A DNA stretch of 64,000 nucleotides from Moniliella sp. 'wahieum' (GCA_003971905.1 RSEE01000030.1:434001-498000), one strand, 5' to 3'; positions 13,802 through 64,000 are shown, counted from the stretch's first letter. Program-made: numbers and translations. Notes: generated by a model from the sequence alone, not told the origin.

Positions 13802-14019
13802 GTCGGGGGGCGCCGGCGGGATGAGGGGTGTGGGTGAAGCGGGGAGGCCGGAGGGGTGGCGGCGATGGAGGCGAGGCTGGCAAGCGCGCAGCTGATCGGA
13901 ACGGCGGCGCAGCCAGCAGCCAGCCGTTAATCAATCGCCCCAGGCGCGCCCATCTGTCCTTGTCGCAGCCACATGCAATGTTTCAAGTGACTAGTGACGC
14001 GCCCCTGCCTCACCCAGGC

Positions 14020-14029
14020 ATCACGTGAC
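14020..14029. promoter_or_regulatory. E-box (ATCACGTGAC), bHLH/Cbf1-like site in the NEO1-PHO13 divergent promoter
   Basis: Exact RTCACGTG match about 200 bp from both start codons; function not shown. Confidence 0.3.
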
Positions 14030-14222
14030 CGCCACAGTTTGATTTCAGCCCGCTCAGCCGCCCAGCCGCCCAGCCTGGGCTGAGCGCTGACATGCCCTGG
14101 CATGGCCGGCTGCGCTCCACCCTCAGGCCTCAGGCCTCACCCGAGACGGGCCCCATTGGCCGCATCGCCCCCATCCCTCTCTCATCGCTACCACCACCTT
14201 CCTTTGCTCGGACCGAGTCACC

Positions 14223-15199
14223 ATGGGCTACGACTTTATCTCCGACGCCGCCGGCGCTGACAGTCTGCTCAGCAAATACGACACGTTTCTCTTTGACTGC
14301 GACGGAGTGCTCTGGTCCGGCTCGGACCACATCGCCGGCGCGGCGGACGCGCTGACCAAACTGCGCAATGCCGGCAAGCAGATCGTCTTTGTCACCAACA
14401 ATGCATCCGTCTCGCGCGCCAAGTACATCCACAAGTTTGAAAAGATGGGCGTCGAGGCCAAGGTGGAGGAGATCGTATCGTCCGCCTACGCGGCGGCGGT
14501 GTATGTTGCGCGGGTTTTGAAGCTAGGCCAATCGGCGCGCCCCAAGGTCTATGTCCTGGGCATGGCTGGCATCGAGGATGAGTTGACCATCGAGGGCATT
14601 CCCTTCTGCGGTGGTACCGACCCTAAGGACAAGGCTTTCCTCCCCGAAGACGGCGATACCTGGGCGCCGCTCAACCATCCCGATGCGATTGACCCCGAGG
14701 TGGGGGCAGTGGTGTGCGGCATTGACTTGAATGTCAATTACATCAAGTTGGCAAAGGCATACAAGCACGTTATGCGCGAGGGTACCCACTTCATTCTCAC
14801 CAACGATGACTCCACTTTCCCTGCTCCTGGTGGGCCCTGGCCTGGTGCGGGCTCCATCTCGGCTCCCCTCCTTTCTCTACCAAGAAGACGCCAACCATCA
14901 TTGGCAAGCCCCACCAGCCTATTCTTGATTCCATTCAGGCAGTGTGCGTCGTTGCCCTTTTTGTTTGTTTGTGCCTGTTTGCTAACTGGTAGTCTGCACA
15001 GGCACCCATTTGATCCCAAGCGTACTCTTTCATTGGCGATCGCCTCGACACCGACATTGCCTTTGGTGCTCAGGCCGGCATTGATACCCTCATGGTACTG
15101 ACTGGCATCTCCAGCAAGGCGGAGGTCGATGCGCCCGGGGCCGAAGTGGTCCCGACCTATATGGCTGACTCGCTCGCCTCGGCCCTTCACGTACAGTAA
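14223..15199 (+). CDS. PHO13: HAD subfamily IIA p-nitrophenyl/phosphoglycolate phosphatase; intron about 14944-15001
   Basis: YDTFLFDCDGVLW, FVTNNAS, ILTNDDSTFP..WPGAGSI, IGKP, GDRLDTDIAFG..GIDTLMVLTG across frameshifts; TAA at 15197-15199. Confidence 0.9.
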
Positions 15200-15296
15200 T
15201 TTCTGTCCTTGGGTGTTGGTTAATCAATTCGTTGCGCCAGTAGGCTGCTATCGCTTGGGAAGAGACGTGATGATGGTCGTAAAGTAGGAACTGGGG

Positions 15297-16724
15297 TCAA
15301 GTGAGCACCCGCCGGATTGCATCTCTTGCTTCCTCGCCAGGAAGACGGGCGACTTTCAAGGTAATTGGGCAGGTGTCGACGTGCTCGAGGTGAGTAAGGG
15401 CACACGAGTAGCAGAAAGCATATCCGGACCGAAGTAGAGCTGGGTTGGCAATTGGGGTGCGGCCACAGAGTCCGCAGGCATTGTACAAAAGTGTCGCGGA
15501 GTGGTGACCAGCCCGGGCAAGAGCTTGAGGATGGACTAACGCATCTTCGCCTACGTCCTTTTCGTGCACCCCATCCCCCAGGACAGCCTTTACCATGGGG
15601 GTGACAAACCCGTCCATCGGCTCATATAAGACCCCATTGCCGTCCGGAAGCAAGGGTTTGGGTGGACCAAAGAGCGGGACATTGGATCCGTACCCGCCCA
15701 ACTCAATGCTCCTCCCTCCCCCCCCAAATTGCCATCCGCCCCGCCGCTGCCTGTTCGCCGGCGTGGGGATTCCGAGCTGTACCACCATTCGAGGAACTTG
15801 AAGCCAAGATTGCCGCAGGAAGAAGGTATTTGAGCGATTCAAAAAAGGCGTAAGGGGAGGCTCGCAGGGCACGGCGCAGACCTTCCCTCGGATGTCGCAC
15901 GAGGGATAGCAACTCCGAGATACCGCCATCAGGGAGGAACGATGCGGAGAGTTGGTCCTGCTCAAGGTTAGTTTACATCATTGCGGCAAAGGGAAAAGAC
16001 TACACACTTGGTCGTCCGGGCCCAACCGGCGAAGGTCGATTCGCATCCACTTAAACCATGGACGCCAGTGCGGCACGCGATCAAACAAGTAGGCCAGGTG
16101 ATAGATCAGAAGCCAGGCTTGGTACCCAACCTGCAGGTAAGGATAGCCGTGGTAGAACAACGACTTGAGCGTCGTCTGTACACGTTCCCGTCTGGAACTG
16201 CTACTGGCGACAGTGGCGGGGCGGTGGGAGGTGGCAAGGGAAGCGGGAGCTTCTGGGTCATGAACATCTTCATCTTCGTTATCGCCGAAGAGAACGTCAT
16301 CGCTGGGTAAACCGCCGCCCATGCCCTCCCATGCAGCATGGGCCTTAGCAGCCAGGTACGGCAGGCCAACGAGAAACAGGGGGAGAGATTGATTTCGCGG
16401 GGCCAGTTGCTCATGCTTGAGCTGGGTGACGCGGGACTGATGGCTGTTGGCGTGAATGACACCAGGACGGCGGCGGCGCTTGAGGGAGTAAAGTGCTCAG
16501 AAAAGGAGGCCCCCAGGTCTTGAGGTAGTGGCGTCGACGAGGAAGAGAGCGAGGGCGTACGCCTCGTCAAACTTGTTAGCCAGCCGAAGGAGCAGGCCAG
16601 CACGCCGCTGGGCCAGGATAACGACAATGTAGCGGAGGGCTGGGCCAAGGAGCGAGCGGAGCTGCTCCGACGCGTACAACTCAAAGAAGGACGGCCGCAG
16701 CGGGTCGCCAGGCATGTCCGACAT
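15297..16724 (-). CDS. PEX12: peroxin Pex12 (Pex2/Pex12 N-terminal domain plus degenerate RING); frameshifts and an intron near 15.96-16.0 kb
   Basis: [46 protein letters not shown]-terminal [25 protein letters not shown]....CPIT...IRRVL. Confidence 0.9.
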
Positions 16725-17080
16725 GGCGGTGGCGGTGTTCAAGGTGGGGAGGCAGGAGGTGTGAGCTTCGAGCGTCGAGTGCTGCTGCTGCGACGGCTGT
16801 CCTGCCCGCCCCGCCTGCGGTGCGTCTGAAACGGGATGGGATGAGTGGTTTGCCCGGTGGGGCGAATGCGGGGCACCGCCCTTCCGCCCAGGCGGAACTG
16901 CTCTGTCTTGGCGCCCCGCAGCCAGACAGCATTGCAACATTCAAACGTTCAACATTGCCTCGGCCAGAAAAAAAATCATCTGCTGCCTGCCGATCCGCAC
17001 GCCAGCACCGTCGGCCATTGGTTCTTGGCCTGCGACTGCCTCGGCTGCTTCCTCCGCCTCCCCCTCTTCTCTCCTCCACC

Positions 17081-19723: not shown

Positions 19724-19847
19724 GGCTGCGGCCCGTGTCTTCTGCTTAGTGGCCAGCGCACCTAACACATGAAAAAATCCGTGTGAGTACTAAAGCCAAG
19801 CGAATCAAGCTCGGGAAACGGTCCCAGCGATAACGTGCATGAGGGTA

Positions 19848-21021: not shown

Positions 21022-22607
21022 GGCGGGCGGGTGTGTGGTGGGACAGAAGCAAGCGCTGCAGATGCTACGCGTCCCACGGACCGCTCTCTGCAAGGAGCGC
21101 GGATGTAGGTGGGCTGCAAGGCCCGCTGTTCTCTGGGTTCCACAATCTCCGACCCTCGATCACCGACCCATCGGCGTGCTGCCTGCCTGCCCCCGGCCTA
21201 GGCTGCCTATCCACGCGTGTTCCTGCTCCCTCCCGCGGCTTCCGGCCGTGGCATCGGCATCAGTCATCGATCATCGATCATCGACCATCATGCATCCGCG
21301 GTGCGTCATCTATGCATGCAACCAACGTCACCCATCCTTTGCGCACCGCGCTTGGCGCCTGGTGTGTGATGCATGATGCATGCATCCCGAGATTTCCTTT
21401 CAGCTTTCTGCTTCGGCCTTCGACGATAACGATAACCTCCGCATTCCGCCTCCCGCCGTTCCGCTCCTGGTGCCACCATCGACTACGGCCGGCCGTCCTG
21501 GTTCGGGCGCTGCACGACGCTGGGTGCCTCTGCTGGCCATCACTGCGACCCCTTCGCCTAGCGCCCAGGCAACGTGCTTTGTCAGGGGCACCTGCACACG
21601 TGGGACGCACCATCGTCGCATCATGCATCATTGGCCCCATCATTTGCAAGCTGCTGGAGACCAACGGCCACAGCTGGTCCGGATGCAATGATCAACCTGT
21701 TCTTTGCATCCCTGGCTCGCTGAGCCGATCCACATGTGCGCCGTAGATCCTTCTGGAATGGGTTGCATGGAAGTACGGCTACGTGCGATCCGTACGCGTA
21801 CGGCATGGTAGCGCCCCTCGCGATGGCCGCGCGGGATGGTCCTATAGCATTTGGCGGCCAAATCAAATGTAGTCCACCTCGCTTTTTAGCCCGCTATAAA
21901 AGGTGTGGCCAAAAGACGTCCTCCATGTCGGGGAAATTCCCAACGTAAAGAGATGCATCAGGATCACAATACGGGCAGTGGTGGGACCCCGTCTTGCTCT
22001 GTGCGGTAGACCGACAAGGCTTGTTCCAACGCGCATGTTGTGGGCGAGGGCCGAGGGTGGGGAGGAGGGGTGTTGTGGGGAGCGTGAGGGCTGGCGGATG
22101 TGGCTCTTCGGGGAGCGTGAGCACGGGGTGATTGAATATTGAACGTTGAACATTCGGATGGCCCCACTGGGCTCGGACAAACGCAGGCTGCCCAGGCGCC
22201 CAGACACGGCCTGTGCGCTGGCGTGCCGTGTGCTCGCCAAACGGGGGTGGCCTGGTGGGGGCGTGGCACACTGCCCCTGTGGCGGCGCCACGCGCGCTTG
22301 CGCTCTGCTGCGTCCGCCGCCGGGCAGGCCAGACAGCGGCAGACAGCAGGCCACAGCGGCAGCAGACACCAGGCCACACCAGCTGCCAGCCTGGCCCATC
22401 GCCTTGGCTGTGTCGGGCGCCCGCCGCTCACCGCCCACTGCGTCGTCCTTGCCTCTGCTCCCCATCTGGCTGCCATGCCCCCCCCCGGCCCTGTTCCTGC
22501 GCCCAGCATGCCCCCTCCACCCGCCCGTGCGTCCTGCGTCCTGCCCTGCCCTCTGCCCCGCGCCCTGCTGACCCCCTCTCCCTTCCGTCCGTACAGACGC
22601 GTACGAC

Positions 22608-24272
<1,665 letters not shown>

Positions 24273-25286: not shown

Positions 25287-25312
25287 ACCACCATCACCAC
25301 CACCACCACCAC
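25287..25312 (+). repeat. (CAC)n microsatellite
   Basis: caccaccatcaccaccaccaccacc upstream of the PP2C gene. Confidence 0.7.
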
Positions 25313-28807: not shown

Positions 28808-29863
28808 ATGCCTCACCTTCCTCCGCAACTCAAGTCGCTCGTGCTCTCACCCACCTTTGCAGGTGGCCGCCTGGCCAAGCCGCTGCAGCCGCCCAAGGCG
28901 GCTCTGCTCACCAAGCTCTTCCAGGACGTCGAAAGCTCCGCAGCAAGCAAGGTCTCGGCTGGGGCGAATGGCTGTCGATCACGACCGCCAGCCTGTTTAC
29001 TCTCGACTCGCCCGGATCGCTCCAGGCGCTGCACAAGTTCTCCGCGCCTCCCGCCTGGAAATCGAGGAGCGCACAGCGCGCGCCTCCTTGACCCGCGAGG
29101 TGGGCCTGAAGTGCATTGGGTTTGTTGGCATCCCCAAGGTCATCAACAACCTTGCTGCTCTCCGCAAGGCGGTCGAGACGGACGCCGAGCTGGTCTCGAA
29201 GCTCTCCCTTGAACCTCGCAGGTAGGTCTTTTTTCCGTTCCGTGTACCCTTCCCCCCCCCCCCCCCCCCCAGGCTGGGAATGCGCTGCTGACGTTGACCT
29301 TTCTCAGGCGCGTGACAAAGGACAACATTGGCTTGGTCAACAAGTCGGCGTACGGGTTGTGGGACAACATTTACACCCCGCTTTCGGAGCGACTGATTGA
29401 TGTGCTCAAGAACAGTCATCCTGACTGCCTGTGTTTATCATTGAGAACGAGTATGGTCCGCTGTTTGCCTCGCCCGGCTCGTTCCATGATCCCGCTCTGC
29501 CCGAACCGGCGTGGGACGTGAACCGGCTGCGTACCTCGCTGGTTGCCATCTCGGCACTGCGGTCACAAGGCGGTGTGGGCCCGCAGGTCACGTCGCATAT
29601 TTGGGGGCTGCTCAAGGCCAAACCCTCCATCTCGTCCCAGGACGTGAACAAGGAAGGGTTGGAATGGCTCACGTCGGAAGAGGGGGCAGAATGGGTGGTC
29701 AAGACGGTCGACCAGGTATGTATCCATCGTGCATCCTTATGAATGGAAGAAGGCAAGTCAGGACTGACTGTGGAACTGCGGATTTGACCAGATTGCCGAG
29801 GTGGTCGAAGGTACGCCAGAGGCAGAGCGGGAGCCCAAACCTGCGCCCAAGCCCAAGCTGTAA
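28808..29863 (+). CDS. AhpD/carboxymuconolactone-decarboxylase-like fungal protein (Pxp2-like); introns about 29222-29307 and 29716-29791
   Basis: REVGLKCIGFVGIPKVINNL, LWDNIY..SHPD..FIIENEYGPLF, TSLVAISALRSQGGVGPQVTSHIWGLLKA, WLTSEEGAEWVVKTVD; spliced end ...PKPKL*. Confidence 0.7.
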
Positions 29864-30789
29864 TCGGAGCATATCGTGGGCGAACGTGCTGCCTGTTTCC
29901 AGCGATCTGCACTACAATAGCGACTGTTCTTGTTGATTATCGAACACCCTCAGCGTAACCCGAATAGAGTGGGACTTGTAGTGGGCATTATAGAAGCACA
30001 AGCGAACGAAGACAACCAATCCTCAGCGGAGACGTTATACTGAACGCACTTGAAGTCCTGGGGTAAAGCAAAACTCGATCAAAGTGCACCCTCTCCGCCA
30101 GGCTCTGCCACGTCCCAGACCTTTGCAGTTGAACGTTCGTTGAACTTGACGTTGAGAAAACCAGCAGATAGACCGGGGAGGATACGTGCGGTAGGTAAAT
30201 CATCCTCTTGTGGTACCTGCAGTAAACGAGGTAGACTACGGTAAGGCCGGTAAACGTGGTAAACCACCATTCTGCTGGCACCGAATTTATCCGACAGCTG
30301 GCACAACAATAGGTGCGTCTTCACGCGTGACGTTCATGTGACATGTGACTAGTGACTCCATCTGCTCCTTGCGCTTTTGGCTCGTGCGCAGAACCGCAGT
30401 GACCGGTGACGGTGACCGGTGACCCAAAGTCTTTTAATCGATGAGGCCGTCACATGTCACACCGTGACGAGCACAATTTCTATGTAGCAACGCTGAAGGG
30501 CGCACGCCATTCCCCCGTCCTCCACCTACACCGCAGGTTGAAAAGCAGTGCATGAACAGCTTGGCCAGCTTGGTCAGCTTGACGGAATGGGTGAGAAGCA
30601 CGGTTTTGGTTTGGTTGGCACCTTGGACTCGAAGAAGGAGAAAAAAACAACGATAAACAAACAAGGCAAACGAGACGGTAGTAACTGCGACTAGTAGAGA
30701 AGCACTGGCAACAGAAGGACGAAACCGATGACAAACCACTGGTGGCCATATGGTGGCCTTGGGTCCCCGCATACCTGTTTTGGCCATGC

Positions 30790-32204: not shown

Positions 32205-33135
32205 GAGGCTTAGAGCTTCAAGCTTCAGGCTGAAGCTCTGTAGCCTCAACCTCACTAGCACTCAAGCTCAAGCTCCAAGCTCCAAGCTTCAAGCCTAAAA
32301 AACTTACGGCCTACATATCAGGCCCAAAGCCCTTAGCCTAAGGCCTAAGGCATAGCCACTAGCCAGTACCAGGAGCAAGTCGTAACCGGAATTAAACCAG
32401 GTACTAGGTACTGTTACCATGTTACCGGGGTACCTGGTAAGGCGGTCGCACTGCTATGAACAAGTTGGTTCAATCAAAACCTGGATGCAGTCCGAGACAG
32501 ACCAGATGCCTGGGCGACCGGTGATGGGTGCATGTCATGCATGTCATGCATCATGCGCTGGAAGCATTTGCCACGCAGCCAAGGCAGCGCGACGCATCAT
32601 GCATCATGCACATCATGCGTCGCATCACACGTCACGCGTCATGCATCATGCATCATGCACCAAGTAGTGAGTGCGGAGTGTTAGCTTGACTAGTGACTTA
32701 GCTAGTGCCTCAGACTGACGCATAAGGCCGAGGTCTATTAGGCCGGTCACCGGTCACCGGTCACTGGTCATTGGCCACCGGTGAGCTCAGCTGGTTAATA
32801 GGGTCACTAGGTCACTAGGTCACTGCTCGCCGCGAAAGCGGTTGGAGGATGCGCACGTGACCGCATGACCAGTAAAGCTATAAAGCTCCTCATCCACATG
32901 GGCCTCATGCCTCGCCCTGCCCTGCCCTGTCTTGTGAGGCCGTCAGATCACAGGCACCTTCCTTGCACGGCGATCGACCATCCTGAAAATGGTCCGGCAA
33001 GCGGCAACAGGCGGCAACGTCAGCGTCGTCAGCGTCAACCCTCAAATCCCCAATTAAGAGGCAGTCCATCGCTCATTAATTTCATTAACGTTTAACGTCC
33101 AACTTGAACATTCATCGCTCCAGCTTCAGCTTCAG
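32205..33135. repeat. cluster of heptad TNA+palindrome arrays (AGCT, GGCC, TGCA, CGCG, CTAG, CCGG types)
   Basis: For example TCA CGCG TCA TGCA TCA TGCA TCA TGCA (32632-32659), CCGG TCA CCGG TCA CCGG TCA (32743-32763) and TAA GGCC TAA near 32339. Confidence 0.8.
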
Positions 33136-42629: not shown

Positions 42630-44493
42630 GAGTCGGGACCCTATAAGTTAGCAGGCGGGAGTGGGCAGGGGATGGAAGAAGGGCGAAACGGATCTGTCTG
42701 TTGGGGAATGCGCACAGTCCACAGAAACGAAAGCCGTCCAAGAGAAAGAGGTGGGGTGCACTCTGGTAGCCGTGTGTGCTGGACGCTGGGGCCCTGGGGA
42801 TGGGGATGGAGGAGGGGAGGACGGGGACAAAGGAAAGAAGGAATGAACAGAATGCCAGAGCCTTTTCCCTGTAGTGGAAAGGGCAAAGTGGGAGCAAAGA
42901 ATGCCGAAGGAGCAACGCAAGGTTTGAGAGAGAGTGGTTCCAACTGTTGTACGTGAGGCGCGCTGGTGGCAAATAAGAGAGACCCCCCAGACTGACCAGG
43001 TTGCCACCGCGGGGGGGAAATTTATCCCCCTGTGGAAGACCACGTCACATCCCAGTTTGCGCATGCTCGTCCTCTATCCTATACCGTCATGCCGGGGACG
43101 CGCAGCAGGGCACACGGTTGCAATGACGCTGCGAAGATGCATCTGCATGATGCGTGAGGCGTGAGGGGCGTCAGGCCTGTAGCCAGCCCGAGGCGTACTG
43201 CCTGCTACTGCATGGTGTGGCATGGTGTGGGAAGCTCTCTGCGGCATGTTTGGGACGAACGGATAAGGAGGAAAGACTCAACTCAGTACTCGGTACTTTC
43301 CGTATATACTCAGTACGCAACGTCTCAACGTCCCACGTCCAACGTTCAACGTTCAGCTCACTCGGCACTGCACAGCTCTACGGATGGCATAGTACATTGT
43401 GGTGCCCACAACCCGGGCACTATACTAGCCCCAAAGTGAGGAACGCACCGGGACGAGGGGCTCCAGTGACGATATAGCCACGGTGTACTGAGAGCAAGCC
43501 CTCGGCTTGGGTAGACATATCACATGGCGTTTTATTGTTTCTTTCGGAAGAGGTGCCGCGCAGTGGGACCTTGTGCGGGGCTGCAATGCCGCGCTGCTGC
43601 CGCTAGTGCCAGGATGTGTCAAGCGCACCAGCTTAGCGCTTACAGCGGGTGCGCCAGGAGGCAGACAGGTGGCAACACGGAATCGAGAAGGAGCGAGTGG
43701 GAAGGCGGGCGAGCGTTCAGTCTCTCGACACACCGAGCGCCAAGAGCAACCCAGCCACTTGTCGGGCATCAGCTGGGTGTGCAACGCGTATGGCCGACGA
43801 GACGCTGCGCCCACGGGCGTCGCCAGGTGATAGCAACGGGGCCAGAGAGGAGGGACAAGTGACTCCTCGAGTGGCCAGTGCTAGTGACCAGTGAATAGGG
43901 AAGCTTGGAGCTGGAAGCTAGTTGCCGGAACGAACAACTAGCATACCTATGTTGCATTGCGTTGGGGTGGGGTGCTGCGCGGCCAGGTACCACAACATTG
44001 CATTTGGGCTGCCCGCAGCAGGCGGCAGGCGGCGCACGCATCATGCATCATGCACCAACGTTTCTCGGTTCAATTGTGCACAGTCCTGTTACAAGACTGC
44101 CTGGCCAGGCAAAGCCAGGCAGGAGGGGGCAGTGGCCCGTGGGCGAGACAGCAGAGCAAGTAATGCCATTCGATCGTCGGGCCCATCGCGGGGTGGGGGT
44201 GGCAGAGCGCACCAGAGGGGGCAGCACGCGGCAGCCGTGGCCAGGAGAGGCCATGTGCATACACGGGCCATCCGTGGTACCTGGCTGGAGCATTTCCAGC
44301 GCCCAGCCCCGCTCAGCCGCTGATGTGCTCAGCCACTCATGTACTCATGTACATACACCATGCATCATCCATCAGTGCGTCAGGTTGTCCCGCGTCACTG
44401 ATCCCGCCGATCATCGATCATCGGACTGCGAACACACATGGCCGCCCTAGTGCTCCATCCGACGAACGATTGGGGCTCGGCGCTCGATGAGCT

Positions 44494-44610
44494 CGATGGG
44501 CGATGGCGATGGGCGATGGACGCTGGGCCATGGGCCATGGGCGCATGGGCGATGGTCGATGGTCGATGGGCGATGGCTATGGGCTATGGGCGATGGTCGA
44601 TGGTCATTGA
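44494..44610 (+). repeat. degenerate 7-bp tandem repeat (NNNATGG)n
   Basis: gggcgatgg, gggccatgg, gtcgatggtcgatgg and gggctatgg units in mostly 7-bp register. Confidence 0.8.
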
Positions 44611-44819
44611 GATCGCTGAGCAGTGGGTTAATGGATGTGGCTGCTGGGTGCTGGGTGGCCGTGTTGGCCGTGAAGCTTGAAGCCGGCCAGCGGCAGTCGT
44701 TGCCGACACCATCCGTGAGCGATATCAACGTTACGTTAGAAAGGCAGGGTGTACATACGCCCATTGCCCAAGAATGTGCATGTGGCATGTGCATGGAGCT
44801 GGCGCGAGGAGGCCTGAGG

Positions 44820-47800
44820 GCATCAATCATCGATATTCGCTTCCGATCATCGATCGCCGCTCACCAATCATGCATCATGTAATCATGTGTACCACCCATC
44901 ATGCATCATGCATCACTAGTCACTAGTCAGTAGTCACTGGGCGCACCATCCCCGAATCCATCATCGAAAGCTACATGTCGGGTGTCGAGAAAATTGAAAT
45001 CCTTGCCGAAGACAGTTCCTGCCAACACCGATTCCACACTGGTGTACAAGCCATGTGTGAGATGTGCCACTCACCGACCCTTCGGATTGCCCGGCTCCGT
45101 CGAGGGCCGTATATTATTACGTGGGTCACACGTCACAGTCACATGTCACATTAGTTACTAGTTACTAGTTACTAGTTACTAGATCATCGATCACTCGATC
45201 ACTCGCCCCACCCACTCGAAGACTTTTGTCACATGCGAATATGTACACTTGCTACCGCACGCCGCACGGTGCAAGACTCTCCTAATTTCAAAGCGCTAAA
45301 ACCGCTGAGCCTCAGATCTCTGATCTCAAAGCCCTGGCTAAGATTCTGTGTGACATGTGACATGTGACATGTGATCTTTGAAATTTGATGTTTGAAGTCG
45401 AAGCGACATGTCGAAAAGTAATGTTTAATCCCCGTCCATGTCACTATCCGCAGCCATCAGTCGCTACGTATCCTCTGCTTTGTCGCAGAAAGCACGCCGA
45501 GTCGGGCTTAAGACCATGGGGGCTTTTGGATTGTGTTCGGAGTAGCAGCCTGATGCATGTGAGCGCGTGCGCGCTCAGCCTGAGCGCTCAGCTTGCGTAG
45601 CGCTAAGCTTAGCCTGAGCGTGTGACAGTGACATGTCAGTGACCTGTGACATGCGGGGTCTGAGATTTGAGGGCCTAAGGACTATGGAGATCGCATGGAT
45701 AGCAGGAGGGAAGTGGGGCGAGTGTTCGCTTTTAGGTACCGGTACCTCGCCTTTTTTCGACTTGGAATTATTTCCTGTACACTCTTTGTTCTTCAGCCTG
45801 CGTCGTACCTTCATCATCATGTCGGATGAGGTCGATGAGGCTAACACGTCTGGCTGGAATCCCCAGAATCACCGCCACCCCCCCTCACTCAGATCGTGCT
45901 TTGCTAAGCGCTAATGCCGGCCATGGGGCCTGGTTACTAGCAGGTCACTTGACCAGTCCGAAGCAAAAGTGATTCTAGCTGCCGTGCGGCGTCGAGTACC
46001 ACACTGAGAAGCAAAGAGGACTCAGTACTCAGTACTCAGTACTCAGTACTCAATGTTCAAAGTTCAACTTGCAAAGCAAGTACCCCTGTTGCATCTTTTG
46101 TGTGGCCAAAAAGAAAACCTGTGACTCTTTGTGGCTTGGGGAAAGGGTTTGATTTGGAACTTCGTAACTATATCTACTTGTACAGATGCATGCTGCGCGC
46201 TGGGCATGATCGATGATCGGTGATCGGAACCTAATAACGATGATCTATCCTCAGATACTTAGTTACTTAGTACTTACTTATTCGCGAGGGGGTCTGTGAC
46301 ACATGTGACACTAGTTACTAATTACTGTTACTTGTGACGCGTGACACAACGATTGACATGACAAGCCCACATCGCCCTGCCTTTGCATCCACGCCAAGTA
46401 AGAGTGCTCTCAGTTCTCCTCAGTTGCTCAGCCCCTGAGTATACCAGTGCTGAGGCTGAGCCTCAGGCTCAGCGGCAGCCCGCACTCTTGGCCGGCTCCG
46501 CTCTCAACTCCGCCATCGGAGATCATCGATCAGTGTGCAGAACCAGGCCGATTGTATTCCTGACCGTGTATTGAGTTCTGATTAATGAACTGATTTCTGA
46601 CCTCTTCTGGGATGTGGGGTCTGGGTCAGCCTGAGCGCTGAGCCTCAGCTCAGCGCTCAGCGCCAGCGCGCGCTCGGAGCTCACTGGCATCAGTGTCGCA
46701 ACAGGTGTTCAGCCACTGTAGAAGATAACTGCGTCAACTTCTTCAGTGTCATAACTCGCTCTTCTTCTCGCGGGCTGGCTTTGCGGAGAGCTAAAGGCGG
46801 TGACGGTACCAGAGAGGCCCTCTGGGGCCTGAGGCCGCCTGAGGCTTCAAGCGTCAACGTACTCAACCTTCAACCTTCAAACTTCAAGCTTCAACCTTCA
46901 ACCTTCAAGCTTCAACTTGAAGCATGAGAGATGCAGGGTGTAATATGCAACAGAATGGAATCAATGCGCCGAGATCACACAATGCACCGGTGCGCGCGCC
47001 ACCCGTGAAGTGTGATACATTGGCATATGTCATGTGAAATGGCGCAGCCATCAGTGCGTCAGTGCATGAGTGCTCAGTCCAACATTCTTACCTTTTGCGT
47101 AGCACTCCGCCGTGAGTACTGAGTGGCGTGACGCGTGAACCGCACGTTTCCGGCTCAAACACGGGGGCCGCAGGGTTCTTCGTCCTCGTCAAGCGTGACG
47201 TACGGGTCATCCATTATATCGATTTTATAACACTTGGCACTTTGATGCATAAGGGTACTCGGTAGGGGTAACTAGTAACTCGTCGTTAACTAGTAACTAG
47301 CTGTCAAAGTCTTGTAAAGCTGTAAAGGTTAAAATGCTAACCACAATACCTAGAACTAGTAAGCAGTAACTAGTAACTGCTGGGAAAAAGTAACTCGCAA
47401 CTATTGTACTCGGTAACTCAACGTTCAACGTACTCAACAGTTCTTCTGGTGCCGTCGCTGTTTCGCCGAAAAAGGGAATGGAGAGCTAGCACATGCTGCC
47501 CTCCGATATTGAACGTCAACGTGTCAACATGTCAACGTTCAACGTTGCCGCGTGACGCGCGGACCGTGCGCGCGTATATTTTACTCACGTTTTACCGCGT
47601 TGCTGTGGGTTAGCTGGGTTACCGGTTAGCGGCTCTGCTACCTCTGTTATATGTTCCGGTTCCTGCGTTATACGTGTTACATGCGTTACAGGCTACCGCG
47701 GAGGGAGCATGTGTCCAGCGCTCACAGACACTTGTCTTTCACGGAGTGCTCTCCTACCTATCCCGACTTCAAGCTCTTTCATAGTATACGCTTCAAGCTT

Positions 47801-49240
47801 CAGTAAGGCTCAAGAGCGCACCCGCTGCTTCCCGCTTGAAGTTGAAGCATGAAGCTTGAAGCCTGATGAAGAACCGCCTGACCCTTGAACCTTGTTAGAA
47901 CTCACAGCGCTCATTATTCATTGAAAATATTGAAGCTTGAAGCTGAGAGCCCCACAACTGGAAGAAGTTCTTGTAGCTGGGATACGGATGGACTTGAAGC
48001 TTAATGCATCATTCATGTTGCATGTGAAGTCGGTAGGCGACCAAATATATGAGCGAGAATCCATATTCAACGTTACATGTTACACTTCAATTCAGTACTC
48101 ATTCCCTCCTCAGGCGTAGGAGTTCCGTTGTTTTTTGCTTCGGTTTCCTTGTTCCGCATCCAAGCCTGCCTAGCCTCTGGCGGGGACTCTTGGCTGCTGT
48201 TGATGCATGATGTACATCTGTACAGGCGTTGCTGTTGGCTTATTATATAGTTGACCATACCACAACCAGATTGCATCTCCTTCGAGCTCGAGGACCATCA
48301 AGACTTCAGGTCTCATATCACATTCAACTTTGTTGCACTGGGACTGCTGTTAGTACTTAGTGGCGCTTCCCTATAGTTATAGTGGTTTGGTCGAATAGAC
48401 TTTTGGCCTGCGCCGCACTCCCACATGGCGCCTCCACCTTGTTCCAATTGTGATCAAAAGCCGCACGTGTGTATGTAGGCGCCGCTGGGCGCATTCCTCT
48501 GTTCGTCTTTCTTACCACCGCAAATTTTGCTCAACTCGCTACCGCGTTACCCATTATCGCTCATCTGCTTCTAATAGCTCAGACCCCGACGTCTGCCTGC
48601 CGTAGTACGTCGCTACACAAAAACTTTCCACGACGTTAATCCCAAATGATCGATAGTCGATAGGCGATCGATCTCGATGAGATCTCGATCATCGAGCGAT
48701 CCGGATCGGCGTACATTCCTTGAAGAACACTTCAAGCTTAGTTCCACGCCTGTGGCTTTGAAGCTCTGAGATCCGAAGCTTGAATTACTGAGTACTGAGT
48801 TGAGTAGTCTGGGTACTGTGAATTATTGCTAGTTACAGTTCAGACTGATGAGTACGTTGAATACTGAGTACTGAGTGTACTGAGTACTCCGACTGAGTAC
48901 TGGGTACTGGTGTTGAGCGCGTCACGCGCCACTCCATCATCTCGGTCACCGGTCAGGCGTTCTTGACATCCAGTTTCAATCTTCAACGTTCAACGGCCGC
49001 AGTGCGCGCGTGTGGGTTGGTCCAGGTTGGTCCGCTTTTTGTCAGACACGATGAATGATTATCGATTAATGGGGCATGATGCATGGCGTATGGTGCACTC
49101 AGCCTGAGGAGAATGGAGGGTGTGTGATTCTGAGGCGCGGGGCAGCAGGCTCTGAGACGAGCAATGTGCATGTCACATGTCACATGTCACGGGCCCTGGG
49201 GGCAGGGGGGTTAAGCGCTAAGCCTTTTAGCGCTAAAATG
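44820..49240. repeat. gene-free island of heptad TNA+palindrome microarrays
   Basis: (TTACTAG)4 at 45155-45182; (TGACATG)3TGA at 45351-45374; (TCAGTAC)4TCA at 46022-46052; TCA-A(C/G/A)CT x7 at 46863-46914; many shorter arrays. Confidence 0.85.
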
Positions 49241-51036
49241 GGATACAATTTACAATCTCTTGAAGGACCGTCACGGAGTCGACTCTTAAGGTATGGTCGC
49301 TCTTGGGAGGCTTGTTGGTGCATCGACGACGTAATAGCAGGGGCGACTCTCCTTTTGATCAGTGGCGAGAGAGGCTGCGTAGGAACCCCAGCCAGTTGGG
49401 CAATATGATAGTAAAAAACGTGTCTAAGAAAGGCATATTCGTATCCCCCGGGACGGGAAACGGGGCCGGGGAAAGCAACGTTACCGAACATGGTCTGGAG
49501 AGCCGGAACCGGATGGGAGCTGAGACTGAAGTAGGCTGGGACTGGATGTGGAGGACGAGAGAGAAATAATGGGGAGATGGTTGTTCTATTCCGGAAAGAA
49601 GATTCTCAACAGTAGAGGAAAGATACGGAGAAAGGGGGAGGGTCGGACAGGAAGACATGATTACGATGAAATGGTATGTCATGCTAGTGTATTTACAATC
49701 ACGCCAACACTGAAACCTTCACGGATTGGATACGGTCTAAAGCCGAACAGTGAGTGGCTGACAAAAGCTGAAGCTGTGAGAGATGGGAAGATGAGAGAGG
49801 TGAAGAGGCGGAGAGCAGAGGAGGCAACTAGAAGAGAACAGAAGAGGAGTTATCAGTATACCGTATAGGCTTTAGAGAAGACGGGAGCTAAAAGAGGTCC
49901 ACGGATCATGGATAGAAACCACGAACCAAATTGCTTTTACAGGCACTGCTGGGGAGACTAAAGGGAAAAGAGCACAGAGCAGAGAGGGAGAACGGGGGGT
50001 AGACGGGACTGAGGAGCAGTCACCACAAGGCAGTCTGTCTCGGGGAGGGAACCATGAAGCGAAAGCAGACTCGCAGAACTGAGTTCCCGATTAGGACGAA
50101 GCGTGGGTAAAAACAAAACCAAGGGACGACTGTCGTCGCCACGGATTCGCAGGTCGATGGGCGCTCGCGCCACCGGACACGGTGTGGTCATACGCATAGT
50201 CGGTGGGAATGTGTGTGTGATGTGAGGCTCAGGCATTATGTGCACCATGAAGTGCACATGATGGTCCTCGTGGGTGATGCAATCGCGATACTAGTAGTAT
50301 AGTGGTGTTGGCGGCGCTCGAACACCACCCTTCATTCTCAGAGAGGGGCATCAAGCAGTCACAGCCGCCACCAGGCCTGTGGCTTCGGAACAGAGAAGGC
50401 AGAAGCAGAAAACATTGGGGCTGTGGGCTACGGAAGGACTGCAGGATTCTTGGCCACACGAACAAAAGCCAGACTGTTGTGACGAAGAGACGAAGTCACA
50501 GCGAGCTCGATAACGATTCCCAACATTTGAGGGCCTTTCTTTTTCCAGAGAGTAGGGATCAGGATTCAATCTATGCTGCCACTTCTCCCATGCCAAATTC
50601 GTGAGGAGATGATGTAGTTTCCCAAAAGAGAGAGAAGACCCTCTGCAGCATTGCCCTATTGCAGGCCACTTGCTTGCCCTCGTACATCTATATTATTATA
50701 CGCATTCAACTACGCTCCAAGGTTTGCCTCTCCTCATGTCTTCTCTGCTGCTTTCCCCAATTCGATGCTTCCTTCCCTCCGTGGTTGTGATCAGCTCCCT
50801 AATTCTTCCAGACAGTGGCAGCCATTGATTGCGGCCACTTGGACACGGCGCAACAGTTCAGTGTTCAACATGTTCAACTTCCAAAAGCCATAAACAAGCG
50901 TTGAGCGCTGGCTGAGGGAAGAGCGTGCAAGCGACAAAGAGTCAAATTATAGATTAGTTCGCCTCCTCCTCGTCCTCTTCCTCATCAACATTATCCCCAT
51001 CAGTGTTGGTGACAGCCTTGCCCTGTACCGTACCAC

Positions 51037-53485
51037 TCATTGGCTTCCTCTTTTTGCCCTTCTTCTTTTCTTCCCCGCCGAAGAGACCTCAGCCTGGTCG
51101 GTAGCCATCCGCTGACGGAACTGTTCGGCGCGGGAAAGGGGTTTGGCCGGGAGAGGCAATACGGTGCCATCTGCCAGCCCGTCAACGTTGGCAGCAGCCA
51201 CGGCCGACATGGCTTCGATTTGGAACATCATGTCCCGGTTTAGATCCTTCTGCTCCGCCAGATCAGCCGCGTTTTGAGCCAATTGGGAACGCAGTGTGCT
51301 TGTCTCAGCCTCGGCGACACGCAAGTTGGCGCTGAGAGCTGTAGTGAGCGCCCGTTCTTGAGCTAGCTTGTCTGCAACCTCGGCCGCCCGATGCGATTGC
51401 CTCTCTACCTCCTGAAGTGCTTGCTCCTTTGCCAACGCAGCATTCGTTGCGCCTTCCCGAGCCTGTTCAAGCAGTTGGCCCAAGCTTTCATGTCGTTCTT
51501 GGAGTTCGATCAGATCCTGTGCCGCAAACGCACGTTGCTCGGCCTCTTGACTGCGGCGCAGCTCAGATCGAAGCGCTGCCTCATAGTATCTCCGTTGCTT
51601 GTCAAGTTGCGAGGAAAGGAGATAAGAAAATTCGAGTCCAACCGACTCAAGTTTCTTGGCCGCCGCGGCCTCACCAGATCCATCGCCTTCGCACCGTCCT
51701 GCGGCCGCCATGAGCACTGCTTGTGTAGCCGACGCATCCGCCTCGGCCTCAGCTTTAGCCGCTGCGGCGACCGCGGACGCGGCGCTGCATTCGCCAGGAT
51801 ACTCCACCTCTTAGGCCCGCTCGTCGTTCCTGTCGAAAGTTCCACTAGACCGCCATTGTTTTGCGTGCGCAGAAGGCGGTGGACATAGCGGTCTTCGGTG
51901 TAGTCCCATACTCGCTGAGTATCGAGTTCGAGCGAGTACCGGTGGCCCGAAACTTGGTAATGTGCATGCGCATGGCGGCGCTGTACCGCCCGCACCCTAC
52001 TGCCGCGCAAAGAAGGCAGACCCACAAATCGTCCGAAGTGCCGCAGGAAACACATCGTGCCGATGCCTGGGGCGCGCCATTGGGGCCCGAAGTATACCTG
52101 CACACGGGACAGCGGCTGGCACCCCACCGACTGAGGCAGGCACAGTGGAAAGTGTGTTGGCAAGGGGATGGTCATCAAGCCCGAGATACTCGCATCGAGT
52201 CGCTCCAGACAGACGGCACATGTCGGCAGCTTGCAGCCCTACTGTACTGCCCCGCCCACAGGAGGATCAGGATCAAAGCGGGAGGGATGCGGGGGAAGCC
52301 CGGCGGCGGCATGGGCTGCAGCAGACGAGGCATTGGCCCCCGGTACGTGACCTGTATGGGAAATGGTGACGCTGGTCACATAGACCACTTGGCAAATTTC
52401 GCTGGGACGGAGAGCGCTGTAGGTGCCCATGAAAAAGCTTGTAAAACTCCTCTGCATCGTCCGCATTCGGAATTTGAGTAACACGATTGCTGGTTGGGCA
52501 GTGTCTCTCTGCGAAAGTAGCTTTGGTTCATAGTGGAGAAGGGGGAGAAACGTACCGGATCATGCGCAGGTGACTGATAGCCCCAGGCCGGCTCAACAAA
52601 CTCAAGAAAATCTGAGGCAGTCATCGTGGCAGGCACAGCCAAGACGGCGAGGATGGTGCCCATCTCCTCCGCTTGCTGAGGGGGAGCAGGAGGAGGGGTT
52701 GGGGGTCCCGGGCATCTTGGTCGGCGTCGACCGATCACGAAACAGATGAACGACGCCAAACGTCACGTCCGTTGATCCTTAGTAAAAGAGTCGGAAGATG
52801 GGCATGTTGGTGAAGGGGAGGCCACATCGTGGATGCTGAACGTGCTCTGGGGGTGGAACGCAGCCAATGGGCCTTGTGGGGCATCTGACGAGGAACGGTG
52901 ACTGCTCCCACTCGAGAGCTCTCTGCCGCATCAGCAAACTCGATCTGGATCGGACCAAGCGCAGGTCGACGGAGGATGCAGGGGAGGCGATGGGGGGCGG
53001 GCGTCAAGGTTATGCGTATGGTGTTCTCCCTGCCGATGCGAGCGACTGAGCGATGTCCGACAACGGAGGAGGGACCTGCGAATCCCCGTCAAAGCGGGAT
53101 ACCTGGCCAAGCTGAGTCATGGCGCGGTGCGTCTGAGCCACAGCTTGCTGTGGCTCAGACGGTGGTGAGGTGGGAGCCAACGGGCGGGGAGGGGGTGAAG
53201 AGGGGTGGATCGCCAGCAGGGGTACAAAATATGTGCCTTCACGACGCAGGGCATCCAGCTCAGCGTCCCAGTCTGGGAGAGCAGAGCTGCTACTGGCCGC
53301 GCTGCCTGCCGGGCTGTTCTCGTACACAGTCATGTGGACCCGGTATGCGGACCAGCGCCGGGCGGGGGAGGTGTGGAGGCCGGGGCGGAGGAGCGTGTGC
53401 GACGGGAAGAGTGAGCCGAGCGTGCCACGGGGGCTGCGCCTGGGGGTCTAGAGGGAGACGAGGTGGATGCGGGGGTGCGCGACAT
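51037..53485 (-). CDS. ETP1: BRAP2/Etp1 RING and ZnF-UBP E3 ubiquitin ligase; frameshifts; start approximate
   Basis: [35 protein letters not shown] ([30 protein letters not shown] across frames), Zn[74 protein letters not shown], coiled coil. Confidence 0.9.
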
Positions 53486-53820: not shown

Positions 53821-55874
<2,054 letters not shown>

Positions 55875-59599: not shown

Positions 59600-59850
59600 A
59601 CGCTTTAGCCTGAGAGCGCTGAGGCTCAGCGCAGCAGCTGGATACTACTCAGCTGAGCACTAAGAGTTACTCCGAAGCGTGAAGCTTGAAGGTTCGGTTT
59701 GACGTTAGTAACTGAGTAGTGAGTAATGAGTACTATCGAGTACCGAGTAAACGTGAAGCTTCAAGCTCTTCAAGCGCCCAGCCCGAGCTTCAGATAACAT
59801 CCGTAACCCGGCCCACACTGATCACCTACCGAGTCACCGGGTCAAATCGA
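59600..59850. repeat. heptad TNA+palindrome cluster (GCGC, GTAC, AGCT, CCGG types)
   Basis: TGA GTAG TGA GTAA TGA GTAC near 59713-59733; TGA AGCT TCA AGCT at 59754-59767. Confidence 0.65.
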
Positions 59851-60653
59851 CAGCCAAACGGCCGTTAAAACAAAACAAGTCCTCTCGTCAATGATCGATG
59901 ACGATGAGATGATGTCGATGATGCATATGACGTCCAGGGAGTGGTCCGCGAATGAATTTCTGCTGCTGCAAGGGATGCGAACTGCCCAAAAACATGCACC
60001 ACAGAGACAAGTCTATGCTACGCCTGCGTGCGGTTCATTCCGCGGCATACTACACGCATACTCTTCGGGTAGGAATGCTCCTCAGGAAAGCTCAGGTCTC
60101 ACGATGAGAGCCAGGCACTCTCATTTATTCGTAAGATCACAGGCAAACAGCATGAAACCAAGTCCACCTCTCTCTCTATTGTCCCAGGTTGCTGAGAGGT
60201 GGTTATATGGAGCAGGCTTCAGAGCGTTAAGCCCCACGTCTGAAACATAGTACACGGTAAATTAGATGGATGGGGACACAATTTTGTTGTACGGTGAAGA
60301 TGAGCATGGGATGACCGGATGGGACACAAGAGAGAGGAAAAATGTGATCCAGTGGCAAAGATGGAAGAATGGAGCAGGGAAGGCGCGGCGAGAGTCAATA
60401 GAGATGGGCGAGAAATGCAAAGGTGACAGCAAGGAGAACCTGGACCACTGGATAGATGCCAAGGGTTGATGGTGACGACGGGGTAGATGTGGCTAATGGG
60501 TGCCAACAAGCGAGGCCGTATAGCGGTGGGAGAGAGAGAGGGGGGAAAGAGAGAGAGAAAGAGAGAGCCAATCAAGGCAGTAGAGGCCAGTGCCAATACA
60601 AGAAAGAGACGAAGAACAGACTGTCACTGCCCGCCATAGGCAGATCCAGCATC

Positions 60654-61748
60654 TCATCTGGGCAGAAGGGCGGGTACGTTCACGCCTTCGACCAAATCGG
60701 ACCAACTGAGTTTTTCGCCTGCAAGGATCAGGCGGGCACCAGCATACTGGCCCAGGAGCAGCATAGAGGGAACGAAGGTGCTGGTTGACGCGCCACAGGC
60801 GCTGCTGCACAATCCGTGCCTCTTCATCTTCTGATCCTCGTCCACGGCAAACAAGGCGTCCTCGACGACCAAATGAGCGGTCTTGCCTTGGTCAGCAAGC
60901 TGCTGGGCACGAGTTTCAAGCAAAGTTTGCTCTTCGAGGAGGAGGGAAAGGCGGGGAGGAACGGCCATGGCCTTGACGCCCCGATCGCCGGGAAGATAGC
61001 GCCGCTCAGTGGTTGCAATCTGGTGCAGTGAAAGACGATACGATGGCTGCGGGAATTAGATGGTCAGACTCAAGGGAGAAAGGGAAGGATGAAGTGAACG
61101 TACCCATTGGGGCCCTTGGCGTGCTTAGCAACATTGTGGGTGCAGCGCGCACAAGGAGACACGACATTGTAGCCAACCACTGCCCCGCACCCATTGCATC
61201 CCAAGGTCTGGGTCAGGCAGTTGCAAGTCCGTTCCTTGGCCGGAGGCTCGTATCCGCACTCGTCACCAAGCAGCGTATCGGGGGGTAGATGGGACTGCAG
61301 TTGGCGGGCATTGCGTCGGTGCTGAAGAGCGTAACATGAGGCTTGAGCAGAAGAACCGCCTTCATGCCCCGGTCGGTGAAAAGGTAGAGCAATGCGCGCA
61401 GCGGACGATGTAAACTGTCTGCCGCATGCCAGCCTTCTCATTACTGGAGATGGGGCGCTGGTGGATACTGGGGTTGGAGGGGACCGAACGCTGGGCAGGC
61501 GGTGAGGGCAAGGGAGGGCGAACCGTTTCCGGTGGGAGGGCATGTCGTACAGCGTGGAGAGCGAGGAACTGACCGAGGCAGAGACGAGGGGCGGAGGGGA
61601 GGAGCGCGGCGCCTGTTGGAGCCAAGGGGTGGCGAGATTGTCGTCGTAGCAGGGCGGAAAGTGAGCGGTGGATGCTGCATCGCAAGCTGGATGCCGATGG
61701 AAGGAGAGTTGAGCCAGTGATGGAAGTTGGAGAAGAAGGAGAATGCAT
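60654..61748 (-). CDS. FAM72: FAM72-family protein; intron 61047-61103; frameshifts; ends approximate
   Basis: VYIVRCAHCSTF..RGMKAVLLLKPHVTLFSTDAMP..RTCNCLTQTLGCNGCGAVVGYNVVSPCARC..PNG|HRIVFH..KLSWSDL parallels animal FAM72 (RGMKAVLL..LFSTD..CGNIVGYHV..PC..NNGHFWMF). Confidence 0.85.
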
Positions 61749-61834
61749 GGCAGACGACGGGGGGGTTATATGAGGAAAAAGGTAGTTACTATCAGGGAGG
61801 AAGGGGCTGTGCAAACCAAGCCTATGCAGCCACG

Positions 61835-62610
61835 AGCGTCACGCGTGACGACACACACACCATCAGCGATCCGCGATCAGCGATCAGCTGCCGACTATCC
61901 TCCACTGGCTCGGCCAGTGCCTTGCTGCTGCCGGCCGCAGCGGCATTTCACACGTTGGATGTCACATGTCACATGTCACATGCCGCACGTCACAGGCATC
62001 GTCACACGTCAGATCTCAGGATCTCAGAATCGGATCTGAGACACAACAGTGACTGGGGAGCTTGGCTCTGCTCAGCCTGAGCGCTGAGGCTCAGCCCTCG
62101 CTGCTGCTTCCGGGGGAATCGCCACGAGAGACAGCACTCGGGCCGAGGGCCGAGCAGTCGGTCCAGTGCTCAGGATCATCGATAATCGATCACTACTCGT
62201 AATGCGTAACTTAAGGGCGTTGCAGATTCCAGGAGGACCACAAAAGCACCCGAGAAGCCAATAATGCTAACGTGCTGAAAAGTAGTCACCTCACTTCACC
62301 TATGGACACGAGGAATGCATGGTGTATGGTGTATGGTGGGTGTATGGTGTATGGTGTATGGTGCACCTTTGTCCCATGGCAGCTGCTGCAGTGAGCCTTA
62401 TGCCGCTTTTTCCGAACGTGTACAACAGTGCCGGCGGTTTGCCCTATTACTAGGAGGCTAGTGGTTGCCCATTGCTGCCTGGGGCTACTTCAGGCTACTC
62501 CCTGGATTCATGGACATCATGCATAGGACGTCATGCGTTACTGATCCTTCAAGCTTCAAGCTTCATCGATGATCATTAACACCATGCATCATGCATCATT
62601 AATCATTCTT
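61835..62610. repeat. heptad TNA+palindrome cluster plus (TGGTGTA)n
   Basis: TCA CGCG TGA at 61839; (TCACATG)3 at 61962-61982; TCA GATC TCA at 62009; TGA GCGC TGA at 62078; (TGGTGTA)n at about 62320-62365; TCA AGCT TCA AGCT TCA TCGA TGA at 62549-62572. Confidence 0.8.
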
Positions 62611-64000
62611 GAAGCTAAAAACTAGTCGCCAGTCTCAGTTCACCCTATTCTTAGTCCTCATTTCCTCCGCATGGTGGCTGTGGCATGTCCCACATGTCAT
62701 GCATCACATATCATGCATCACTCCTAACTGTCACCTGTTGCGCATCTGCATCCCGCCACCCACATTGGTCACCGGCCCTTGGTCCCCGTTTTGCTTGTTC
62801 CACATAGTGGTGCATAATGTTTGTCACACAACGGCATCTTCACACTTCATCACATGGGCCTCTGAAGTATTACTGAAAGTAGGGAGAAATAACACAGAAG
62901 CGCTGCAATTCCTGGTAACCAGTAACGGTAAGCGGTAAGAGGTAGCCACCCTCTGTATCCACCATCTTTCTCGGCCTCCCGTGCCACATGCATCCTGTGT
63001 TATCCTTTCGCATAGACTTGTGTCGGGTTATGGAAAAAAGATGATCTAACGATCAACGTCCAACCTTCTGCATGATTTTCCCTCTCTCTTTTCGGCGATT
63101 TCAAGAAGCTGCCACCAACCATATTGGATGGAATAAGCCATCGGTTTTTTACCATCAACAGTAGCGCCAACAACATCAGAGCATTAAAAAAGCTAAGGTA
63201 TATATACAACGATGACTCTTCTGTAAATTGGGTACTTATTCCATCTCTTTCCTCGAACTATGCATTATACAGAGGTGGTGTGGTATAGGAAAGTACAGCG
63301 CATCAGGGCCGGCGAGGGCTATATCATAACTGTTGTGTGTATACTCTTCTCAGGTCTCCCACAACGTCTCTCGTCATCCGTTTGTCACGCAGTTCTTCTC
63401 GGCCGTTGTCACTGTGTTCTATATTATGCATGCAGGGTATATGGAGTAACTAGTATAATGATGCATGATGACGCGTTGGATTACCCGCTCTGCGCACTTT
63501 GATCTACATATCTACATGTCTACTTATCCCCTCCCTGCGGCCCATACGGGCTTCCGGGCTTAGTGTCAAAGGCTTTAAGCTCCAAGCTTAATGAGCGCTG
63601 AGCTTCGAAGTCCCAAGCGTCTGTTGACATGGACTTGAAAGAGGCCAGGGCACACACTGTTTTTGTCCAAGGTGGCTCATATTCAATATTCTGAGTGTCT
63701 CGCCGCTTGCCGCTGTGGTACCTGATGTATAGTAGTACGCTGACGCGGGGCACTGAGTACTGATATGGATGGGCCTCCACAAACATGTTACACGTGAGGC
63801 TGAGGTAGGAGGCCTGAGGCACACAATCCTGTGAATACTGAATGCGACAACGCTATCACCCGTTGTAATAGAACGCATGAGATTTCTGTTTGCTTCAAAA
63901 GAGCATTCTCTTCGGTCCCACTCAGGAATACAAGAAACAAACTATCTGAGACAAAGCTGAAAACGAGAGATCGCGTGACGCGTGGTGCTTGACGCTGAGA

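Follow-up and report, generated by a model that had tools for sequence, protein, structure and literature searches.

A 64-kb stretch of the Moniliella sp. 'wahieum' assembly (GCA_003971905.1, RSEE01000030.1:434001-498000; 64,000 nt, hereafter the window) was analysed for heptad repeats in which a TNA triplet (N being any base) alternates with a 4-bp palindrome. The elementary unit of these repeats was a 12-mer of the form ab-TNA-b'a'-ab-TNA, in which a 5-nt direct repeat is placed around the reverse complement of the two bases 5' of TNA. Formally, the unit would be produced by a single event that turns ab-TNA into ab-TNA-b'a'-ab-TNA and adds 7 nt, a 2-nt inverted copy together with a 5-nt direct copy. 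The repeats themselves establish this formal insertion, its polarity and its ruler. Such an event yields the shared triplet, the period of 7 (5 + 2) and the identical N of the two triplets. The 4-bp palindrome is an automatic by-product of b'a' lying beside ab and is neither a target nor a constraint; because the inverted copy of ab abuts the direct copy, the spacer is free in sequence yet always palindromic. The heptads may be the scars of one stereotyped, lineage-specific insertion process that acts through fold-back of a nascent strand, a reading we put forward tentatively and rate a little below an even call.

Enrichment, specificity and location of the heptads

Counts were compared with a background of 30 order-3 Markov simulations of the window. 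The arrangement TNA + 4-bp palindrome + TNA was observed 125 times against 7.4 expected (z approximately 59), which agreed with the enrichment of palindromic spacers proposed in a preliminary description of this DNA. The same arrangement with other triplets stayed at background (ANT, 6 observed and 6.9 expected; CNG, 24 and 22.7; GNC, 27 and 23.5), as did TNA with palindromic spacers of 2 bp (30 and 28.5) or 6 bp (1 and 1.9). When all 16 possible flanking a-N-b triplets were tested, TNA alone was enriched (16.6-fold) and the other 15 showed 0.8- to 1.8-fold, so that the specificity to TNA and to a 4-base spacer proposed earlier was borne out. Spacers of TNA-N4-TNA with one mismatched pair were moderately enriched (90 observed, 40 expected), while those with both pairs mismatched were not (48 observed, 62 expected). 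Since fully non-palindromic spacers were not enriched, there was no TNA periodicity independent of the palindrome, and the earlier argument that a protein reading only TGA/TCA would need no palindromic spacer held.

Fifteen of the 16 possible 4-bp palindromes were present in the window with fairly flat usage, TATA being the one missing. The preliminary description had counted 14, with neither AATT nor TATA; one AATT case at 45379-45388 raised its tally by one while the absence of TATA stood, and all 14 of the example arrays that it had located hold the motif it assigned to them. The central N was identical in both triplets in 104 of the 125 hits, and in 88 of those 104 it was C or G. Perfect tandems of at least 14 bp numbered 71 at period 7, 64 at period 6 and 14 at period 8. 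Quasi-palindromic units made up 39 of the 71 period-7 tandems against approximately 10% expected, and 37 of them were of the TNA type. The excess of self-complementary units was found at period 7 only and was absent at periods 4, 5, 6 and 8.

The heptad rule is restricted to TNA and to non-coding DNA. Array bases amounted to 32 bp within 17.6 kb of Pfam-supported open reading frames (ORFs) and to 1178 bp within 20 kb outside ORFs of at least 140 aa, in line with the non-coding character attributed to the heptads at the outset. The motif was intergenic, lay both upstream and downstream of genes, and covered 10-15% of the long intergenic stretches at 43.0-49.6, 61.8-64.0 and 32.1-33.3 kb.

Two outside control sets did not follow the rule. 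Five TCA triplets spaced 7 bp apart were sought in prokaryote genomes and matched at least 132 times, at no fewer than 129 loci; among the matches listed, none of the 81 homogeneous TCA heptamer arrays had palindromic spacers and 6 of 528 individual spacers were palindromic. Metagenome contigs carrying (TCACATG)3 gave at least 120 loci and at least 138 arrays of three units or more, with a G+C content of 0.29-0.70; this array was widespread in metagenome contigs for other reasons. Among the contigs listed, other period-7 tandems were quasi-palindromic in 20 of 207 cases, which is the chance rate, with 8 of the TNA type, and TNA + 4-bp palindrome + TNA with other palindromes was found 160 times against 132 expected in 400 kb. 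No general TNA + palindrome rule was found around (TCACATG)3 among the metagenome loci listed, which yielded no relative of the organism. As the prokaryote and metagenome arrays lack the rule, it is not generic physics of heptamer repeats but a property of this lineage.

The elementary 12-mer, its ruler and the growth of arrays

Counted on both strands, the 12-mer was found 122 times, where 0.13-0.24 copies were expected; the copies occupied 72 distinct loci, and 72 of the 100 chains of heptads contained at least one. With another apex it remained at background (ANT 1, CNG 1 and GNC 3), and 21 copies stood isolated between unrelated flanks. Both 5-nt copies carried the same N in 122 of 134 12-mers, as expected if the second copy was re-read from one template. 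Maximal TNA-type period-7 runs showed a length peak at 12-13 nt and a steep fall at 14 nt. With the strands folded together, 19 of the 28 runs of 12 nt extended from the outer edge of TNA to the palindrome centre, 14 of the 24 runs of 13 nt covered the same span plus one extra base, and only one of the nine runs of 14 nt was a tandem duplicate of the heptamer centred on N (expectation ≤0.15 for each class). Plain 7-bp duplication, when simulated, gave 3-7 hits, which is chance level; this result and the single 14-nt run in nine ruled out a 7-bp staggered-cut duplication of the N-centred heptamer.

The ruler was narrow in both the arm and the filler. At a one-base apex, an arm of 3 was found 122 times, an arm of 2 nine times (4.5 expected), an arm of 4 once and an arm of 5 never. 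Fillers of 2 nt were observed 122 times (0.2 expected), compared with 12 of 0 nt (4.9 expected), 8 of 1 nt (1.5 expected), one of 3 nt and two of 4 nt. Fillers that instead repeat the TNA end in inverted form make up a mirror class, which had three unambiguous members against 122.

The two longest perfect arrays measured 5 + 21 and 5 + 28 nt. Neighbouring units carried the same palindrome in 18 cases and different palindromes in 7. In-phase junctions between different palindromes numbered 7, with 0.02 (Markov) or approximately 0.35 (conditional) expected, and in six of the seven the second series ended with the predicted two bases xy. In a few chains TGA stayed in phase with varying spacers, for example at 45351-45402. 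Longer arrays also evolve by slippage and point mutation. In the plus-strand array (TCA-ACCT / TCA-AGCT)7.7 at 46863-46916 a non-palindromic variant with one substitution had spread among the units, which indicates that slippage acts on longer arrays. The longest tandem array, (CGATGGG/CGATGGT)n at 44494-44603 (approximately 16 copies, 110 bp), has a unit one substitution away from TGA+TCGA and resembles a TNA heptad array in which the A was lost before slippage enlarged it.

Neighbouring units were also seen to differ by CpG-type transitions, as in the series ACGT/ACAT/ATAT (22133-22149), CGCG/CACG/TGCA (32625-32659) and CCGG/CTGG/TTGG (32747-32782). One palindrome may thus turn into another through paired CpG decay, and CTAG, GTAC, TGCA and CATG may derive in part from CCGG, GCGC and CGCG.

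A GC-rich quasi-palindromic motif of approximately 24 nt with similar GCGC flanks occurred four times (45575-45592, 46626-46660, 59605-59633 and 62072-62097). In it, TSA triplets are set apart by 3-nt spacers (GCC/GGC) and by one GCGC spacer, as in TCAGCC-TGAGCGC-TGAGGC-TCAGC. TNA-GCC/GGC-TNA was observed 27 times against approximately 4.6 expected, with the triplets mostly inverted relative to each other. The 7-nt rule does not describe this motif, which may represent either a binding site or a small dispersed element of its own.

A fold-back proposal and competing explanations

In the proposed process, a nascent 3' end that has just passed ab-T-N-A would leave its template during replication or during the processing of a nick or flap, and would fold back with A opposite T and N as the apex base. 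Self-templated extension by two bases, up to the still-paired strand, would give a 7-nt mini-hairpin, after which synthesis, or ligation to the re-annealed downstream strand at a nick or flap, would resume at the template position of a. Fold-back with return to the template is expected to leave newly made sequence in inverted copy and, after it, a direct duplication; from this product we infer a polymerase as the agent, and likewise the timing of the event. Each product would bear new ab-TNA sites on both strands, and repeated events would lengthen an array of the same palindrome, with slippage contributing to the growth of longer arrays. If the outermost TNA underwent the event on the other strand, the outside flank would serve as ab, and a palindrome of another sequence would begin in register with the 7-bp period. 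When the event was modelled in a toy simulation, with 110 events in 20 kb, 10% subsequent substitution and a certain preference for sites with extra pairing, hit numbers, chain lengths and the asymmetric peak of boundaries were reproduced.

A number of results count against this proposal. T..A works while C..G, G..C and A..T do not, and the fold-back model gives no reason for it; a C..G apex would pair better, yet it was not enriched. A single A-T pair over a one-base apex is a very poor primer, and an arm of exactly 3 is not fixed by the model. A pre-existing inverted repeat that could stabilise the fold-back was not present at the 34 short runs, where only T..A pre-exists; a further pairing base was already there in 15 of the 34 (8.5 by chance) and full prior symmetry in one. 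Predicted hairpins were weak (-3.4 to -6.3 kcal/mol, z -0.1 to -2.7), and hairpin stability was ruled out as the driver on this basis. The simulation yielded 0-1 junctions between different palindromes compared with the 7 observed, so array ends would have to be hotter than isolated TNA sites, for a reason that the model does not supply. The 12-mer was missing in 28 of the 100 chains, of which 11 were bare 10-mers against approximately 7 by chance. The isolated 12-mers were interleaved on the two strands (11 plus, 10 minus), and this lack of strand bias leaves no visible link to fork direction. Moreover, all counts came from one 64-kb window of one assembly and from the prokaryote and metagenome control sets, both of which are non-fungal.

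The unexplained T..A, the arm of 3, the poor primer and the weak hairpins suggest that a protein sets the geometry. It is conceivable, although we would sooner doubt it than accept it, that a dedicated protein-ruled mutational engine, either altered Okazaki-flap or nick processing or a domesticated hairpin-forming nuclease, writes 7-nt mini-hairpins at TNA and thereby continuously makes microsatellites and palindromic hexamers de novo, having built at least a tenth of the intergenic DNA. Such an engine would give a eukaryote a sequence-specific mutational signature of endogenous origin that had so far gone unrecognised.

Protein action also underlies a different explanation, by which the heptads would be repair scars of breaks made by a site-specific nuclease or a cut-and-paste transposase. 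These would be left either by a 5-bp staggered cut at NN-TNA that was filled in and joined to two P nucleotides from a hairpinned flank, or by a 3-bp duplication of TNA in which each inverted terminal repeat left two of its bases. PIF/Harbinger and IS5-type elements typically duplicate a TNA-like 3-bp target, the 12-mer may formally be taken as a 5-bp duplication with a 2-nt inverted filler, and a protein would account for the strict ruler and the T..A specificity. hAT, Transib, MULE and V(D)J provide known cases of P nucleotides at hairpinned flanks, according to the available part of PMC5499845, and speak for this explanation as well. It is nevertheless unlikely. The 64-kb window held no transposase domain among its 131 ORFs of at least 140 aa and no TNA-flanked pairs of terminal inverted repeats except two array-to-array matches. 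The filler spectrum spikes at 2 nt, unlike the usual spread from hairpin opening and end joining, and the companion class, in which the TNA side would supply the P nucleotides, is the nearly absent mirror class described above. Remnants of terminal repeats would require approximately 15 families with different ends, and TNA-palindrome-TNA without extension was present in only 11 of the 100 chains. Ordinary microsatellite slippage, with quasi-palindromic heptamers expanding faster or escaping loop repair, was very improbable as an account of the whole. Slippage is visible in the longer arrays at 46863-46916 and 44494-44603, and neighbours with the same palindrome outnumber those with different ones. 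However, most elements are 12-13 nt, which is under two units, and have non-random boundaries; there was no excess of palindromy at periods 4, 5, 6 or 8 or at arms 2 or 4, the more stable C..G-closed units were not enriched, the predicted hairpins were weak, and the listed prokaryotic TCA arrays and metagenome tandems showed no palindromy beyond chance. Slippage as the sole cause is thus largely refuted. The preliminary description had held slippage alone to be insufficient, and the modal 12-mer, the self-complementarity at period 7 only and the listed prokaryote arrays sustain that view; with its argument on protein readers also holding, its inference of a specific symmetry-generating mutational process is supported.

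Selection for cis-elements was weighed in the same way, as arrays of binding sites for an abundant lineage-specific protein or as structural elements of promoters and terminators. The intergenic position upstream and downstream of genes is compatible with it, TGA keeps its phase while the spacers vary in a few chains such as 45351-45402, and many units hold ANNNNT hexamer palindromes which dimeric factors could read. The fifteen palindromes with fairly flat usage, the lack of enrichment of TNA spacing without a palindrome, the asymmetric 12-mer with no obvious reading as a binding site and the coverage of 10-15% of long intergenic DNA make it a distinctly unlikely origin. In addition, the excess of spacers one change away from a palindrome was approximately 50 compared with 118 for perfect ones, which would fit young decaying insertions and not conserved sites. 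An artefact of assembly or sequencing is hardly credible, since the pattern avoids coding DNA and carries mutational decay, including CpG-type transitions between units, and its sequence specificity appears to match no error mode known to us. Three readings of TNA were considered on general grounds and dropped: TNA as deaminated CNG, as a stop-codon trap, and as AP-1/Yap-type sites, which have A-N-T at the centre.

The nearest published likeness to the fold-back proposal was found in rad27-delta yeast, where insertions with palindrome extension and duplication were ascribed to a nascent strand that folds back and then realigns (Omer et al. 2017, PMC5677150, in the portion available). The two share an inverted copy of just-made sequence, a direct duplication and a polar architecture, and need no transposon. 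As far as that portion of PMC5677150 goes, the yeast events are rare, heterogeneous in size (e.g. 66 bp) and begin at inverted repeats that were already there, such as a 15-bp palindrome, whereas here the insertion is always 7 nt, with a one-base apex in T-N-A, one prior complementary pair and at least 72 loci in 64 kb. The footprints of hAT, Transib and MULE elements and V(D)J joints likewise carry short palindromic filler beside a duplicated target, with its sequence set by the flank, but their fillers vary in length and come from either flank, while those of the window were 2 nt in 122 of 145 cases and came from one side.

PIF/Harbinger and IS5-type elements resemble the heptads in having T-N-A as repeated target; their excision is mostly precise, and they predict neither a 4-bp palindrome of free sequence nor the asymmetry of the 12-mer. 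In polymerase-theta end joining a 3' end snaps back, copies a few of its own bases and re-anneals, leaving inverted filler. The likeness lies in the self-copying fold-back with re-annealing and in the inverted filler, and the difference in that polymerase-theta events arise at double-strand breaks and vary in their lengths and microhomologies; to our knowledge, this polymerase is generally said to be absent from fungi. Compared with microsatellites, the heptads are similarly head-to-tail arrays of short units in non-coding DNA and the longer ones slip too, but they would be born by a specific 7-nt insertion at a defined triplet and have TNA + palindrome as their unit.

No description of TNA + palindrome heptads was found in the full-text literature, subscription papers and supplements lying outside the scope of the search. 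The portion of PMC12699852 that was available gave no account of heptamers, and its one passage on palindromes was unrelated. The statement in the preliminary description that no account was known therefore stands for the 7-nt TNA form, but not for the general mechanism of fold-back with duplication, which is in print (PMC5677150, in the portion available). The class of mechanism is known; what appears to be new is the stereotyped 7-nt TNA form, together with how densely it occurs and how it contributes to the build-up of intergenic DNA.

If the fold-back proposal is true, the heptads would offer a clean natural case of a sequence-specific insertional mutational signature with a readable one-step scar, in which microsatellites are born without slippage, and a route by which promoters could be seeded at a high rate with palindromic hexamers, the preferred sites of dimeric factors. 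Within the Ustilaginomycotina, the proposal would also single out one branch whose replication or repair is peculiar in a way open to testing. In practice, the arrays bear on annotation and marker design, given their share of long intergenic DNA here.

Individual arrays and genomic context

The first cluster of heptads was located at 13988-14139 in an ORF-free gap between a flippase-like ORF (minus strand) and a HAD hydrolase ORF (plus strand), and contained TGA-CTAG-TGA, the 12-mer GC-TGA-GC-GC-TGA (14079-14090) and (TCAGGCC)2.7. A perfect (TCA-TCGA)3 array was found on the plus strand at 21264-21284. The cluster at 30321-30459 held seven TNA-palindrome-TNA hits with CATG, CCGG, CGCG, CTAG and TCGA, including an in-phase junction from CATG to CTAG at 30339. 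That at 32544-32764 included a TCA chain with CACG/CGCG/TGCA x3 (32625-32659) and a (TCA-CCGG)3 array decaying by transitions (32743-32782).

The densest zone extended from 43346 to 49236; TNA-type period-7 runs took up approximately 12% of its bases, and no fewer than 12 kinds of palindrome were present. Perfect arrays on its plus strand included (TTA-CTAG)4.4 at 45152-45182, TG-(TGA-CATG)3-TGA at 45349-45374 (26 nt, 5 + 21), which is followed by four in-phase TGA with other spacers up to 45402, AC-(TCA-GTAC)4-TCA at 46020-46052 (33 nt, 5 + 28), the longest perfect array, and (CATG-TCA)3 at 49169-49190. Also on the plus strand, the in-phase junction array at 44899-44929 passes from TCA-TGCA x2 to TCA-CTAG x2 with one TCA in common, and an isolated first-generation 12-mer, GA-TCA-TC-GA-TCA, lies between unrelated flanks at 46521-46532. 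A nested inverted arrangement of the arrays at 43-49.6 kb was considered and dropped, as they had no common centre. The second dense zone, at 61839-63763, was upstream of a Yippee-like ORF (minus strand) and had approximately 10% of its bases in runs. It contained (TCA-CATG)3 at 61959-61982, the chains AGCT/AGCT/TCGA and TGCA/TTAA at 62542-62605 and, on the plus strand, the isolated 12-mer AC-TGA-GT-AC-TGA at 63752-63763.

The window is nuclear basidiomycete DNA from near the Ustilaginomycotina. An EF1-gamma ORF of 347 aa had its best named relatives in Tilletiaria, Tilletia, Malassezia and Ustilago with approximately 51-53% identity, and one further protein reached 75%. Housekeeping genes were dispersed across the window (SAPS, RPS3, flippase, PP2C, kinase, Oxa1 and others). 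Comparison of the window with itself by blastn gave only two short matches as long self-homology, which indicates that the dense zone was not assembled from larger duplicated blocks. The stretch 43045-49600 (6.5 kb) was free of ORFs of at least 140 aa and lay between a Zn2Cys6 factor ORF and a zf-UBP ORF, both on the minus strand; its G+C content was approximately 0.50 compared with 0.57 for the whole window. This is an unusually long intergenic region for an otherwise gene-dense window. Finally, a reverse blastn self-match revealed a 32-nt near-perfect palindrome (30/32) at 53130-53161, a homopolymer C19 was present at 29252-29270 and an imperfect (GA)19 dinucleotide run at 60530-60567.

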